Positions 53,401 through 59,400 of a stretch of DNA of 64,000 bases are shown one piece after another. The position numbers were made by a program. Position 1 is the stretch's first letter; each line of letters starts with the position of its first letter. Source of the stretch: Escherichia coli (lineage in GTDB: Bacteria; Pseudomonadota; Gammaproteobacteria; Enterobacterales; Enterobacteriaceae); the NCBI RefSeq assembly GCF_050320075.1, contig NZ_CP190018.1. The stretch is one strand, 5' to 3'.

Positions 53401-56400
53401 ACTGAGGACTGAACAAGGGCGCTCTTGTAAAAACAAGAGTTTTCTCGTGGTTTCGCCGAACTGTCACACTTACGTTCGGTTATGTGCTTAATAATGTTAT
53501 GAAAAAGAAACCGGTTGCGCAGTTGGAGCGTCAGCATTCACTGCTGGAAAATCCATGTGCTTATGGGTTGTTATCGCAGTTCCAGGCTGCGATAGTCGTT
53601 AACTGTTTTACACTTAATAAAATAATTTGAGGTTCGCTATGTCTGACGACATGTCTATGGGTTTGCCTTCGTCAGCGGGCGAACACGGTGTACTACGCTC
53701 CATGCAGGAGGTTGCAATGAGCTCCCAGGAAGCCAGCAAGATGCTGCGTACTTACAATATTGCCTGGTGGGGCAATAACTACTATGACGTTAACGAGCTG
53801 GGCCACATTAGCGTGTGCCCGGACCCGGACGTCCCGGAAGCTCGCGTCGATCTCGCGCAGTTAGTGAAAACTCGTGAAGCACAGGGCCAGCGTCTGCCTG
53901 CACTGTTCTGTTTCCCACAGATCCTGCAGCACCGTTTGCGTTCTATTAACGCCGCGTTCAAACGTGCGCGGGAATCCTACGGCTATAACGGCGATTACTT
54001 CCTCGTTTATCCGATCAAAGTTAACCAGCACCGCCGCGTGATTGAGTCCCTGATTCATTCGGGCGAACCGCTGGGCCTGGAAGCCGGTTCCAAAGCGGAG
54101 TTGATGGCGGTGCTGGCACATGCTGGCATGACCCGTAGCGTCATCGTCTGCAACGGTTATAAGGACCGCGAATATATCCGCCTGGCATTAATTGGCGAGA
54201 AGATGGGCCACAAGGTCTATCTGGTCATTGAGAAGATGTCAGAAATTGCCATTGTGCTGGATGAAGCAGAACGTCTGAATGTCGTTCCTCGTCTGGGCGT
54301 GCGTGCACGTCTGGCTTCGCAGGGCTCCGGTAAATGGCAGTCCTCCGGCGGGGAAAAATCGAAGTTCGGCCTGGCGGCGACTCAGGTACTGCAACTGGTT
54401 GAAACCCTGCGTGAAGCCGGGCGTCTCGACAGCCTGCAACTGCTGCACTTCCACCTCGGTTCGCAGATGGCGAATATTCGCGATATCGCGACAGGCGTTC
54501 GTGAATCCGCGCGTTTCTATGTTGAGCTGCACAAGCTGGGCGTCAATATTCAGTGCTTCGACGTCGGCGGCGGTCTGGGCGTGGACTATGAAGGCACCCG
54601 TTCGCAGTCCGACTGTTCGGTGAACTACGGCCTCAATGAATACGCTAACAACATCATCTGGGCGATTGGTGATGCGTGTGAAGAAAATGGTCTGCCGCAT
54701 CCGACGGTAATCACCGAGTCGGGTCGTGCGGTGACTGCGCATCACACCGTGCTGGTGTCAAATATCATCGGCGTGGAACGTAACGAATACACGGTGCCGA
54801 CCGCACCTGCAGAAGACGCACCGCGCGCCCTGCAAAGCATGTGGGAAACCTGGCAGGAGATGCACGAACCGGGAACTCGCCGTTCTCTGCGTGAATGGTT
54901 ACACGACAGCCAGATGGATCTGCACGATATTCATATCGGCTACTCTTCCGGCACCTTTAGCCTGCAAGAACGTGCATGGGCAGAACAACTCTATCTGAGC
55001 ATGTGCCATGAAGTGCAGAAGCAACTGGATCCGCAAAACCGTGCGCATCGTCCGATTATCGATGAATTGCAGGAACGTATGGCTGACAAAATGTACGTAA
55101 ACTTCTCGCTGTTCCAGTCGATGCCGGATGCGTGGGGGATCGACCAGTTGTTCCCGGTTCTGCCGCTGGAAGGGTTGGATCAAGTGCCGGAACGTCGCGC
55201 TGTGCTGCTGGATATTACCTGTGACTCTGACGGTGCTATCGACCACTATATTGATGGTGATGGTATTGCCACGACAATGCCAATGCCGGAGTACGATCCA
55301 GAGAATCCGCCGATGCTCGGTTTCTTTATGGTCGGCGCATATCAGGAGATCCTCGGCAATATGCACAACCTGTTCGGTGATACCGAAGCGGTTGACGTGT
55401 TCGTGTTCCCTGACGGTAGCGTAGAAGTAGAACTGTCTGACGAAGGCGATACCGTGGCGGACATGCTGCAATATGTACAGCTCGATCCGAAAACGCTGTT
55501 AACCCAGTTCCGCGATCAAGTGAAGAAAACCGATCTTGATGCTGAACTGCAACAACAGTTCCTTGAAGAGTTCGAGGCAGGTTTGTACGGTTATACTTAT
55601 CTTGAAGATGAATAATTAAGATTATTCCGCTGGCGGGTCGATTTATTTACGTAAATCGGCCCGCTTTCTTTTTATATATTCTTAAAAATAATTTAGCTGC
55701 TTTTCTTATTAAATAATCTCCCTACAATCGCTGCATTAATTAAATGCAGAGGGAACGGTTATGAAAAAATGGAAAGTACGTAGCGCGTTGATAGCATTAG
55801 CCGTGCTGCTGGCCGGTTGTTCCAGTAATGCGCAGTATAATAGCAGTGCATCAGGCAATGTCGGCACCGCCTGGGGTGGGGATGTACACTCATCGGTTCA
55901 GGGCGTATCTGCTGAACGAGTCTGGCGCGATCCGGCAGAGATGATCGTTATTAGTTATTCGACTACTGTTCCTTCGGGCTACGACCGCGTTTATAGCATT
56001 CGTATTAACGAACTTGAATATGCTATTCGCGATGGTAATTTTAATTCTCTACCTATTACGCGGGTTTATGATTCGTCAAATAATGAACCACGCTATATTG
56101 TCCATGCCAGAGTCGGAATGAATTATCAATTATATGTCCGCAATTACAGTCGTAACACCAACTACGAGATCGTTGCTACGGTTGATGGCCTGGATGTGCT
56201 GAACGGCAAGCAAGGTTCGCTGAATAACAAAGGCTATATTGTGAATGCCGGAGATTCGTTAGCGATTAAAGGATTCCGCAAAGATAAACATACCGAAGCG
56301 GCTTTTCAGTTCGCCAACGTTGCTGATTCCTACGCAGCCAATTCGGCGCAAGGCGATGTGCGTAATACCGGGGTAATCGGCTTTGCCGCCTTTGAATTAC

Positions 56401-59400
56401 AAGGCCCGGCGCAAAACGCGATGCCACCGTGCTCTGGACAAGCCTTTCCGGCAGATAACAATGGCTATGCGCCGCCACCGTGTCGGAAATAGCAACCTCG
56501 CTTGATGCCTCGTCCATTTAAGGCGATAATTAGCGCAAACTTGTGTTTCGCAAATCCAACCCTTCCTCGTCGGGCCTAACGACGCGGAAGGGTTTTTTTA
56601 TATCGACTTTGTAATAGGAGTCCATCCATGAGCACCTTAGGTCATCAATACGATAACTCACTGGTTTCCAACGCCTTTGGTTTTTTACGCCTGCCGATGA
56701 ACTTCCAGCCATATGACAGCGATGCTGACTGGGTGATTACTGGCGTGCCGTTCGATATGGCCACTTCTGGTCGTGCGGGGGGACGCCACGGTCCGGCAGC
56801 GATCCGTCAGGTTTCGACGAATCTGGCCTGGGAACACAATCGCTTCCCGTGGAATTTCGACATGCGTGAGCGCCTGAACGTCGTGGACTGCGGCGATCTG
56901 GTATATGCCTTCGGAGATGCCCGTGAGATGAGCGAGAAGCTGCAGGCGCACGCCGAGAAGCTGCTGGCTGCCGGTAAGCGTATGCTCTCCTTCGGTGGTG
57001 ACCACTTTGTTACGCTGCCGCTGCTGCGTGCTCATGCGAAGCATTTCGGCAAAATGGCGCTGGTACACTTTGACGCCCACACCGACACCTATGCGAACGG
57101 TTGTGAATTTGACCACGGGACCATGTTCTATACCGCGCCGAAAGAAGGTCTGATCGACCCGAATCATTCCGTGCAGATTGGTATTCGTACTGAGTTCGAT
57201 AAAGACAACGGCTTTACCGTGCTGGACGCCTGCCAGGTGAACGATCGCAGCGTGGATGACGTTATCGCTCAGGTGAAACAGATTGTAGGTGATATGCCGG
57301 TTTACCTGACTTTTGATATCGACTGTCTGGATCCTGCTTTCGCGCCGGGAACTGGTACGCCGGTGATTGGCGGCCTGACCTCTGATCGCGCCATTAAACT
57401 GGTACGCGGCCTGAAAGATCTCAACATTGTTGGGATGGACGTAGTGGAAGTGGCTCCGGCATACGATCAGTCGGAAATCACCGCTCTGGCTGCGGCGACG
57501 CTGGCGCTGGAGATGCTGTATATTCAGGCAGCGAAAAAGGGCGAGTAAGCGCCGGATAAGATGCGTTATGCGTCAAATCCGGCGTAATAAAATGCTTACT
57601 TAACTCCATCCGCGCTCATACGATCGCGAATATGCTGGGCGCGTTCGGCGGATGCTGGATGGTCGTCAAACATTGAGCTTTGACGGCCTTCTTCCAGCTT
57701 CGCCAGTTTTTCAAAGCTGGTGGCAAGACCTGCCGGGCTGATGCCGCGTTGGCGCAGAAGATCGTAAGAATAATCATCGGCTTCTGCTTCCTGGCGCTGG
57801 GAGAATTGCGAATTAACTAATTTCTCGCCCAGATCACCGAGTTGTGATTGAGATAAACTGCCGACAATCCCGCCCGCAGAGGCCGCAGCTACTCGCACGG
57901 CATTTGTACCAAGTGCCACCTGCATCCCTTTCTTCACATGGCCTAACGCCACGTGCCCCATCTCGTGACCGATCACCGCTTCGACTTCGTTATCCGTCAT
58001 CATATCCATCAGCCCGCTATAGACGCGGATACAACCGTTAGCCATTGCAAAGGCGTTCACATCCTTCGCCATATACACTTTGTAATTCACCGGCTGACCG
58101 TTGATATTGTTGCCTAGCGCATTGGCAATAGTTGTCAGACGTTTAGCGTATTCGCTATTGGCTGGCGCAATCGTCGCCTTGCTGTCCATCTCCTGACATG
58201 CCTGATCGCTCAGGGTTTTCACCTGCGCATCACTCAAACTGTAAGCCTGAAAAGCTTCCGCTCCTGATGAGAGCAGTCCGTTGGAGTCCATATTCTGGCA
58301 ACCGGTCAGTACCGTTGCCACGCTCATTGCTACCAATAAGGCGCGAATTTTCATGTTTTCTCTTCCGCACAAGGTCAGGATTATTCTAAAAATGCGCCGT
58401 TTGCAGGTGAATCGACGCTTAGTCTCAGTATAAGGAAAAGCGCAGCGGACGGGCGAGTAGATTGCGCAACATGCGAGCATGATCCAGAGATTTCTGAAGC
58501 GGCAAAAGGATGTTCCATGTACATGACGCGCGGCTTGCGGTAAATTGTTGGCAAATTTTCCGGCGTAGCCCAAAACGCGCTGTCGTCAAGTCGTTAAGGG
58601 CGTGCCCTTCATCATCCGATCTGGAGTCAAAATGTCCTCACGTAAAGAGCTTGCCAATGCTATTCGTGCGCTGAGCATGGACGCAGTACAGAAAGCCAAA
58701 TCCGGTCACCCGGGTGCCCCTATGGGTATGGCTGACATTGCCGAAGTCCTGTGGCGTGATTTCCTGAAACACAACCCGCAGAATCCGTCCTGGGCTGACC
58801 GTGACCGCTTCGTGCTGTCCAACGGCCACGGCTCCATGCTGATCTACAGCCTGCTGCACCTCACCGGTTACGATCTGCCGATGGAAGAACTGAAAAACTT
58901 CCGTCAGCTGCACTCTAAAACTCCGGGCCACCCGGAAGTGGGTTACACCGCTGGTGTGGAAACCACTACAGGTCCGCTGGGTCAGGGTATTGCCAACGCA
59001 GTCGGTATGGCGATTGCAGAAAAAACGCTGGCGGCGCAGTTTAACCGTCCGGGCCACGACATCGTCGACCACTACACCTACGCCTTCATGGGCGACGGCT
59101 GCATGATGGAAGGCATCTCCCACGAAGTTTGTTCTCTGGCGGGTACGCTGAAGCTGGGTAAACTGATTGCGTTCTACGATGACAACGGTATCTCTATCGA
59201 TGGTCACGTTGAAGGCTGGTTCACCGACGACACCGCAATGCGTTTCGAAGCTTACGGCTGGCACGTTATTCGCGACATTGACGGTCATGACGCGGCATCC
59301 ATCAAACGCGCAGTAGAAGAAGCGCGCGCAGTGACTGACAAACCGTCCCTGCTGATGTGCAAAACCATCATCGGTTTCGGTTCCCCGAACAAAGCCGGTA

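Follow-up and report, generated by a model that had tools for sequence, protein, structure and literature searches.

In Escherichia coli K-12 the genes for biosynthetic arginine decarboxylase (speA) and agmatinase (speB) form a pair that is commonly described as the speAB operon. In K-12, a promoter region of speB itself has been identified by experiment (PMC3141248). The second described system that bears on this locus is that of the classical Gram-negative outer-membrane lipoproteins (Lpp, Pal, NlpE, MliC), which are processed by Lgt, LspA and Lnt and sorted by the Lol pathway. Under the established E. coli lipoprotein-sorting rule an Asp at position +2 is the Lol-avoidance signal, and small lipoprotein genes are commonly present in some E. 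coli phylogroups and absent from others.

The window analysed here is a stretch of 64,000 nucleotides from an E. coli chromosome (contig NZ_CP190018.1, assembly GCF_050320075.1). In it, as in 65% of E. coli, the same two genes stand 1012 bp apart (55616-56627, from the speA stop at 55615 to the speB start at 56628), separated by an additional gene and by an additional terminator-like hairpin, whereas the K-12 interval measures 137 bp and is gene-free; what the two arrangements have in common is the flanking genes and the hairpin-plus-leader directly 5′ of speB. The first-pass annotation had placed a 243-aa lipoprotein ORF with the lipobox LLAGC in this interval and had taken the K-12 interval to be short; the ORF is indeed there, and alignment with K-12 finds the gene absent from that strain. 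The features discussed below are as follows.

53639..55615, + strand: speA, biosynthetic arginine decarboxylase, left neighbour (ORF list; RefSeq annotation of identical or near-identical loci)
55616..56550, no strand assigned: polymorphic segment of 935 bp, with a 60-bp filler in its place in K-12-type genomes (alignments, genome counts)
55632..55675, + strand: intrinsic-terminator-like hairpin of 15 pairs with a T-rich tail, just 3′ of the speA stop (terminator scan, inverted repeat, three-genus alignment)
55723..55728, + strand: putative -10 box TACAAT, part of a candidate promoter of the lipoprotein gene's own, with a weak -35 and an AT-rich tract upstream (inferred from sequence)
55731..55749, + strand: perfect palindrome CTGCATT-AATTA-AATGCAG with a 7-bp stem, between the -10 box and the Shine-Dalgarno motif (RNA fold -7.6 kcal/mol, z = -3.6)
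55761..56492, + strand: lipoprotein CDS, 243 aa, ATG start (ORF list and sequence)
55761..55820, + strand: predicted signal peptide and lipobox (MKKWKVRSALIALAVLLAG, then C), with Ser, not Asp, at +2 (sequence)
56493..56550, + strand: 58-bp segment 3′ of the CDS, present only in occupied alleles (promoter scan, shuffle tests, reference-strain comparison)
56558..56599, + strand: hairpin with a 15-bp stem and a T-run after it, 28 nt 5′ of the speB ATG, common to both E. coli alleles and Klebsiella (inverted repeat, alignment)
56628..57548, + strand: speB, agmatinase, right neighbour (ORF list; RefSeq annotation)

Judged by its conservation, the lipoprotein ORF is a real gene and not a chance reading frame, because its dN/dS is low (0.06-0.10 against Salmonella and Klebsiella, 0.2 within E. 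coli), as is characteristic of purifying selection, and because a profile search returned thousands of homologs, namely 4,188 homolog clusters of a proteobacterial family at E ≤ 1e-3 (clusters at 50% identity). A Shine-Dalgarno motif, GAGGGA, lies 6 nt 5′ of the ATG, and the only other gene-sized ORF in the speA-speB interval is an 83-aa antisense frame within the lipoprotein CDS itself. The protein is fast-evolving, its dN being some 15-fold higher than the speA value. RefSeq holds the same gene at the same locus, at 96-99% identity, as WP_000758914.1, WP_000758915.1, WP_000758911.1 and WP_000758897.1 (O157:H7, IAI1, CFT073, IAI39), under the names ‘lipoprotein’ or ‘hypothetical protein’; these records have no functional annotation, and literature searches turned up no paper about these proteins.

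Low-GC codon usage and AT-rich flanks had also been pointed out for this ORF. The codon usage is as described (GC 0.485 overall and GC3 0.459, against a GC3 of 0.61-0.63 in speA, speB and tktA), while of the two flanks only the upstream spacer is AT-rich, at 33.8% GC, the downstream spacer having 47.4%. The orthologs in other genera also have a low GC3 (0.49 in Salmonella; 0.51 against 0.74 in Klebsiella), and since they share the offset, the low GC3 is no sign of recent acquisition by this strain and is, on these comparisons, an old property of the gene. A GC3 so far below that of the neighbours in all three genera is not explained by simple vertical descent with amelioration.

Among 5,426 complete E. 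coli genomes, 3,542 (65%) carry the lipoprotein gene and 1,867 (34%) carry the 60-bp filler allele, which is always single copy and never occurs alongside the lipoprotein gene; the K-12-type junction itself was counted in 1,863 complete genomes. The gene is intact, with 2-9 aa differences, in the reference strains IAI1, CFT073, O157:H7 and IAI39, which between them represent phylogroups B1, B2, E and F, and K-12 and HS, both of phylogroup A, have the gene-free interval of 137 bp. The suggestion of a strain-variable insertion is therefore right as to variability and unsupported as to insertion, as same-site orthologs occur in Salmonella, Klebsiella and Citrobacter. The difference between strains is ordinary presence/absence variation and will not surprise specialists, given how common such variation is for small lipoproteins among phylogroups; the protein family itself is uncharacterised.

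The empty allele is no clean deletion. Its flanks are 98.5-100% identical to those of the occupied allele, and occupied alleles all have GAA as the last sense codon of speA, empty ones GAG. The filler is only marginally similar to the sequence that it replaces (z = 2.8), the 58-bp downstream segment included; no single stretch of what was deleted resembles it significantly, and neither do the spacers of Klebsiella and Salmonella. The filler was looked for twice by exact scan in 100,044 GTDB species representatives, both times with no match, and there is no second copy in E. coli genomes.

In Salmonella, Klebsiella and Citrobacter the ortholog sits at the same site, 145-153 bp after speA; the Citrobacter gene order is metK-yqgC-yqgB-speA-lipo-speB-loiP-tkt, and the Salmonella ortholog has lost speB as its direct neighbour. 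A three-genus alignment shows the speA-to-lipoprotein spacer to be homologous across genera, with the hairpin and the -10 box conserved, and amino acid identity (74% to Salmonella, 61% to Klebsiella) roughly tracks the species tree. Because of the same-site orthologs in other enteric genera, the homologous spacers, the presence in B1, B2, E and F and the lack of signs of mobility, the polarity as read from sequence comparison is loss in the K-12-type lineage, not gain. We put a probability of roughly 80% on the reading that the gene codes for a lipoprotein anchored in the outer membrane and is vertically inherited among enterobacteria, located directly 3′ of speA since before the split of Escherichia, Salmonella, Citrobacter and Klebsiella, and lost in about one-third of E. 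coli. The loss would have come about via a single, nearly invariant allele in which 60 bp took the place of some 935 bp, made up of the terminator of speA, the promoter and CDS of the lipoprotein gene and the 58 bp that follow, and from the ancestral occupied state and this loss allele it would follow that the tight spacing of speA and speB in K-12 is derived.

Absence from K-12, a GC3 of 0.46 beside neighbours at 0.61-0.63, an upstream flank at 34% GC and fast protein evolution would all suit a horizontally acquired accessory islet that inserted between speA and speB in some E. coli strains, but we consider this highly improbable in view of the same gene at the same site with homologous spacers in three other genera, its presence in the B1, B2, E and F reference strains and identities that follow the species tree. 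Moreover, there are no flanking direct repeats at the boundaries of the polymorphic segment and no integrase, transposase or tRNA target; a plasmid search gave no true plasmid copies, its matches being chromids or mislabelled chromosomes, and a phage search gave no copies in E. coli or other enterobacterial phages, with matches only in Rhizobiaceae jumbo phages. The smallest probability of all goes to the view of the ORF as a remnant, decaying or without function, whose presence or absence is neutral. Natural loss in 34% of genomes is in keeping with that view, as are the IS1 that interrupts the gene in one strain and the expression data, the O157 proteome and Ribo-seq supplements containing no entry for the lipoprotein under its presumed locus tags. 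However, the 243-aa frame is intact in every occupied genome sampled and in the four reference phylogroups, dN/dS is 0.06-0.2, 28 columns are invariant among 62 homologs at 37-74% identity, and homolog clusters number in the thousands.

The predicted product of the vertically inherited gene is most likely a lipoprotein that Lol sorts to the outer membrane and that carries a beta-sandwich of the binding type. The N-terminus MKKWKVRSALIALAVLLAG, followed by CSS, comprises a basic n-region, a hydrophobic core and the lipobox L17-A18-G19-C20; the Lys/Arg-rich start is MKKWKVR and the uncharged hydrophobic stretch after it is SALIALAVLLAG, with residues 3-18 helical in the AF2 model. Cys20 of the lipobox LLAG-C20 is encoded at 55818-55820, and its column is invariant in 62 of 62 homologs. 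At +2 the protein has Ser21, and orthologs have Ser or Ala, so that the Lol-avoidance Asp is absent. By analogy with established lipoprotein biology, the protein would be exported by Sec and then lipidated at Cys20 by Lgt, LspA and Lnt, and since residue +2 is Ser rather than Asp, Lol would be expected to carry it to the outer membrane. The predicted layout is a signal peptide (1-19), the lipid-attachment Cys20, a disordered linker (about 21-33), an all-beta domain (34-213) and a Pro-rich tail (214-243) containing C224 and C241. These two cysteines covary, both being present in 20 sequences, neither in 41 and one without the other in 1, and they may form a disulfide in the periplasm. Like the classical outer-membrane lipoproteins, the protein combines a basic n-region, a hydrophobic core, an L-A-G-C lipobox, an invariant Cys, a non-Asp +2 residue and a flexible linker before a folded periplasmic domain, but its mature domain resembles that of none of them (Lpp, Pal, NlpE, MliC).

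Database searches with the protein were negative throughout. Pfam gave 0 matches at E ≤ 1 for the lipoprotein, nothing consistent in 62 members of the family and nothing in 10 divergent members; NCBIfam matches (ActS, LptM, Lpp, RpoE-regulated lipoprotein) were confined to the signal peptide and far below curated cut-offs; PADLOC gave no match; PHROGs matches (E ≥ 0.023) were mostly to the signal peptide only and none was significant; and PDB sequence searches with the single protein and with a profile gave no match. The AlphaFold model is confident (mean pLDDT 85) and shows a disordered linker at 22-29 and an all-beta core at 34-213, which as modelled is a domain without a close solved relative: the nearest candidates among known folds are MATH/TRAF-like and ToxA-like 8-stranded beta-sandwiches (SPOP MATH, the USP7 TRAF domain, Fusarium Avr2/SIX8), and fold comparison gave, with low scores throughout, no structural neighbours other than sandwiches of Ig-, MATH- or TRAF-like type, which are non-catalytic. 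We think it possible, though short of probable, that the E. coli gene represents a large, widespread proteobacterial lipoprotein domain family (about 4,200 clusters, with circularly permuted members and jumbo-phage copies, and without a Pfam or NCBIfam model, a solved structure or a close structural neighbour), probably overlooked since K-12 deleted the gene, and that the family may hold a distinct, undescribed envelope function. Considering its size, and that it is missing from Pfam, NCBIfam and the PDB, the family would deserve a DUF entry and a solved structure. Here, then, is an old, conserved enterobacterial lipoprotein gene that about two-thirds of E. coli possess and the model strain K-12 lacks, and this absence probably explains why the gene is unnamed and lacks a literature. 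Envelope-biology screens in strains other than K-12 (such as CFT073, EDL933 or Salmonella) could take it up as a candidate.

As to what the protein does, a tentative proposal, which we would not call likely, is that the beta-sandwich of about 180 residues has no enzymatic activity and serves to bind an envelope ligand or a protein partner via a conserved polar patch of R53, N128, E136, D142, D145, R173, K174, Y191 and N194, a function dispensable under many conditions. That the conserved domain is instead a periplasmic enzyme, for example a hydrolase acting on an envelope polymer, seems unlikely: in its favour, the invariant polar residues R53, N128, E136, D142, D145, R173 and Y191 are concentrated in the block of highest conservation (119-213), and the core domain also occurs in the Rhizobiaceae jumbo phages, but neither the Pfam, NCBIfam and PDB sequence searches nor the fold comparison connect it to an enzyme family, and the low-scoring sandwiches it does resemble are non-catalytic. 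Nor do we think that coupling to polyamine (agmatine/putrescine) metabolism, with the lipoprotein as an envelope component working with SpeA and SpeB, is anything but improbable. It would explain the retained position, at least four genera keeping the gene beside speA and speB or between them, and a Comamonadaceae homolog is likewise embedded, with tight spacing, in another amino-acid operon (hisG-hisD-lipo-smallORF-hisC). Against it stand the hairpins on both sides of the gene and its own putative -10 box and Shine-Dalgarno motif, the separation from speB in Salmonella, and the one-third of E. coli that lost the gene yet kept speA and speB intact. Conservation of the neighbourhood, moreover, does not reach beyond single lineages (next to speA in enterics, within the his operon in Comamonadaceae), the contexts elsewhere being unrelated, and no family-wide association with polyamine genes was found. 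We dropped gene neighbourhood as a functional clue, distant homologs lying in unrelated contexts.

As the K-12 speA-speB spacing appears to be derived, models of the operon and its regulation drawn from K-12 may not transfer to other strains. With terminator-like hairpins before and after it, and a putative -10 box and a Shine-Dalgarno motif of its own, the lipoprotein gene probably has its own promoter, although a strict consensus promoter scan made no call for one. The -10 region, CCTACAAT, is conserved in Salmonella and reads TACACT in Klebsiella. The stem of the hairpin at 55632..55675 is preserved through compensatory changes in Salmonella and Klebsiella and is missing in the K-12-type allele. 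An Rfam scan of 53000-58700 at E ≤ 1 gave no RNA family. Downstream, the 58-bp segment is conserved with Klebsiella (0 of 500 shuffles score as high) and contains a promoter-like TTGATG-17-GATAAT at 56502-56530, listed by the promoter scan and a candidate speB promoter. The palindrome at 55731..55749 could be a 5′-leader hairpin or an operator; the equivalent leader in Salmonella has a hairpin of other sequence, which covers its Shine-Dalgarno motif.

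Between speA and speB, the window carries a 243-aa ORF in the gene order metK(-), speA(+), ORF(+), speB(+), loiP(-), tktA(+), as read from the ORF list, and strain 144 (NZ_CP023364) matches it at 100% identity across the query. The relevant features are:

55761..56492, + strand: lipoprotein ORF of 243 codons, flanked by the speA stop at 55615 and the speB start at 56628
56502-56530: promoter-like TTGATG-17-GATAAT, 5′ of speB
56558-56599: strong terminator-like hairpin, a 15-bp stem then a T-run, between TTGATG-17-GATAAT and the speB ATG
1717-1776 of L001 (the K-12-type locus): 60-bp filler of the K-12-type allele

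The ORF follows a Shine-Dalgarno sequence (GAGGGA) by 6 nt, and its product begins with MKKWKVRSALIALAVLLAG followed by CSS, with the lipobox L-A-G-C; this N-terminus has the appearance of a textbook lipoprotein signal peptide, and the 243-aa ORF passed the sequence-level lipoprotein tests.

The gene is strain-variable, as the first-pass annotation had supposed. Among 5,426 complete E. coli genomes, the full occupied interval is found in 3,542 and the K-12-type junction, at ~100% identity, in 1,863, while the K-12-specific 60-bp filler occurs in 1,867, as a single copy each time and never alongside the lipoprotein gene. That the interval is short in K-12 is also borne out: it measures 137 bp, without the gene, in the K-12 derivative ET12567 and in HS (both phylogroup A). 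The reference strains IAI1 (B1), CFT073 (B2), O157:H7 (E) and IAI39 (F) all have an identical 1012-bp interval and an intact 243-aa ORF with 2-9 residue differences. The ~17 remaining genomes have rearranged intervals, such as the IS1-associated disruption in strain 23CRST038. There (L003 1-4434), a translocated block of ygeQ, tRNA-Gly and actS lies between two IS1 copies, one of which truncates the lipoprotein gene to leave an N-terminally truncated pseudogene adjoining speB.

Such variability had been read as a possible insertion into the polyamine operon region, a reading that proves wrong: the gene fails the tests for a horizontally acquired islet, as it occupies the same site in Salmonella, Klebsiella and Citrobacter and carries no mobility signatures. 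Specifically, orthologs lie 145-153 bp 3′ of speA in Salmonella enterica, Klebsiella and Citrobacter freundii, the last with complete synteny to the window (metK-yqgC-yqgB-speA-lipo-speB-loiP-tkt). A three-genus alignment finds the speA-to-lipoprotein spacer homologous among E. coli, Salmonella and Klebsiella, including a CCTACAAT -10-like box and a terminator-like hairpin whose stem is upheld across these genera by compensatory substitutions. The 58 bp 3′ of the CDS are likewise homologous to Klebsiella (0/500 shuffles score as high), and protein identity, 74% with the Salmonella ortholog and 61% with that of Klebsiella, roughly matches the species tree. Repeat analysis of the window found no direct repeats flanking the segment, the ORF list holds no mobility genes at the locus, and no copies of the gene were found on true plasmids or enterobacterial phages. 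These same-site orthologs, homologous spacers, tree-like identities and missing signs of mobility therefore argue strongly, at the level of sequence, that the lipoprotein gene is ancestral at this site and that the K-12-type lineage lost it. Its presence or absence across E. coli is in itself an ordinary phenomenon; that K-12's compact interval is the derived state is mildly interesting.

The base composition of the gene had also been remarked upon. Its low-GC codon usage holds (GC 0.485, GC3 0.459, against GC3 of 0.61-0.63 in speA, speB and tktA), as do the ORF and its lipobox; of the flanks described as AT-rich, the upstream spacer is so (33.8% GC) and the downstream one is not (47.4%). GC3 of the gene is 0.46 in E. 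coli, 0.49 in Salmonella and 0.51 in Klebsiella, with neighbours at 0.61-0.74. The deficit relative to neighbours is ~0.15-0.23 in all three (L005, Salmonella; L006, Klebsiella). Simple amelioration does not account for a lag that persists in three genera after so long at the site; the cause may be very low expression, or selection may favour AT-rich sequence.

The empty allele is no clean excision, as 55616-56550 (935 bp) is exchanged for 60 bp, GTCCTGTGTTACTTGAATCCGCTTAATTTAGCGGTGATAATCCGCCACAATTTATTGTGA. This filler has only marginal likeness to the 58 bp in whose place it stands (local alignment z=2.8, 6/500 shuffles as high) and, by the same local alignment and shuffles, none to the rest of the deleted segment. 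When 100,044 species-representative genomes (GTDB) were scanned for exact matches, the junction and a 21-mer inside the filler were both missing. No source was detected for this sequence, which is single-copy in E. coli and missing from all GTDB species representatives; this is again mildly interesting. The allele flanks have no excess divergence (98.5-100% identity); empty alleles share the final speA codon GAG with Salmonella and Klebsiella, and every occupied E. coli allele examined has GAA.

The ORF is a real gene. Its dN/dS is 0.06-0.10 against the Salmonella and Klebsiella orthologs and 0.2 within E. coli, with a non-synonymous rate ~15 times that of SpeA, and 28 columns, including the lipobox Cys, are invariant in an alignment of 62 homologs (37-74% identity). 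An exhaustive profile search of 50%-identity clusters matched 4,188 clusters at E<=1e-3 and 3,234 at E<=1e-10. The protein nevertheless falls outside every curated family searched: neither it nor its family matches Pfam, NCBIfam matches are confined to the signal peptide, and PADLOC and PHROGs give no match. RefSeq already annotates the gene as 'hypothetical protein' or 'lipoprotein' (e.g. WP_000758914.1), and a literature search found no paper on it; that so large a family is uncharacterised is of mild interest.

A confident AlphaFold2 model built from the 62-sequence alignment (mean pLDDT 85, most of the core >90) predicts:

residues 3-18: signal-peptide helix
residues 22-29: disordered linker
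residues 34-213: all-beta domain
C-terminal of the all-beta domain: Pro-rich tail, lower confidence

Conservation peaks at residues 119-213 (motifs YEIVATVDGLDVLxGKxGS, GFRK and AYAANS), and an N-terminal GTxWG strand and C-terminal FP..YAPPP motif are also strongly conserved. C224 and C241 covary almost perfectly (both in 20 sequences, neither in 41, mixed in 1), which points to a disulfide, fitting a periplasmic location. The conserved family core corresponds to about E. coli residues 85-215; some members are circularly permuted, with the GTxWGE segment (LGTxYGE...F.R) C-terminal of the core domain, and others carry long low-complexity, Pro/Ala-rich N-terminal extensions of 100-160 residues (variant architectures: P0272, P0279, P0241, P0209). 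Together these data show that the gene is conserved and under selection and that its product has a lipobox and a mature domain rich in beta structure. By established lipoprotein biology, the protein would be exported by Sec, lipidated at Cys20 via Lgt, LspA and Lnt and, because residue +2 is Ser and not Asp, passed to the outer membrane by Lol, with the C-terminal disulfide forming in the periplasm. Tentatively, the sandwich might be no enzyme but a module that binds an envelope ligand or a partner. One third of E. coli have lost the gene naturally, which shows that its function is dispensable in many niches.

The gene remains adjacent to speA in enterics, with distant homologs elsewhere. In two different Comamonadaceae genomes the homolog is tightly set in hisG-hisD-lipo-smallORF-hisC (L008 6001-7233; L014 4001-5171), and other distant homologs have unrelated neighbours. 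The Comamonadaceae small secreted ORF (115-129 aa, no Pfam match) overlaps hisC by 4 bp and could be a conserved partner protein. In Salmonella an island parts the gene from speB (L005 6886-12732), and in Entomohabitans (L016 2637-3524) speA and the gene are kept apart by a 295-aa ORF for which no Pfam hit is recorded; the interval therefore collects different cargo in different enteric lineages. These differing contexts, and terminator-like hairpins on both sides of the gene, make an obligatory polyamine role less likely. The Salmonella island encodes a GntR regulator, a mannitol-type dehydrogenase, a zinc alcohol dehydrogenase and an Ldh_2-family gene.

Both alleles keep a TTGAxx-17-GATAAT promoter-like pair 5′ of the shared hairpin and speB start, and an experimentally identified, sigma-S-preferred promoter region has been reported for K-12 speB (PMC3141248). 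The hairpin at 56558-56599 is common to both E. coli alleles and Klebsiella (window 56502-56627; L001 1717-1853) and has no Rfam match at E<=1. If the TTGATG-17-GATAAT promoter is real, the speB leader must read through this hairpin, a possible attenuator or leader element. Upstream of the lipoprotein gene, the stretch from its putative -10 box to its Shine-Dalgarno sequence contains a perfect palindrome (CTGCATT-AATTA-AATGCAG, 55731-55749; RNA fold z = -3.6), which could act in translation or as an operator. The hairpin in Salmonella differs in sequence (CCCCCU...AGGGGG) and takes in the Salmonella Shine-Dalgarno (L005 5971-5994), and the Klebsiella leader has no convincing hairpin. Finally, the speB-loiP spacer (window 57549-57595) is a second polymorphic site: 47 bp in the window and IAI39, ~205 bp in K-12, HS, O157:H7 and CFT073 (L001 2775-2979), and occupied in IAI1 and 23CRST038 by a ~7.6 kb D-glucosaminate island (dagR, PTS, dgaE, dagF; L018 273-7902).
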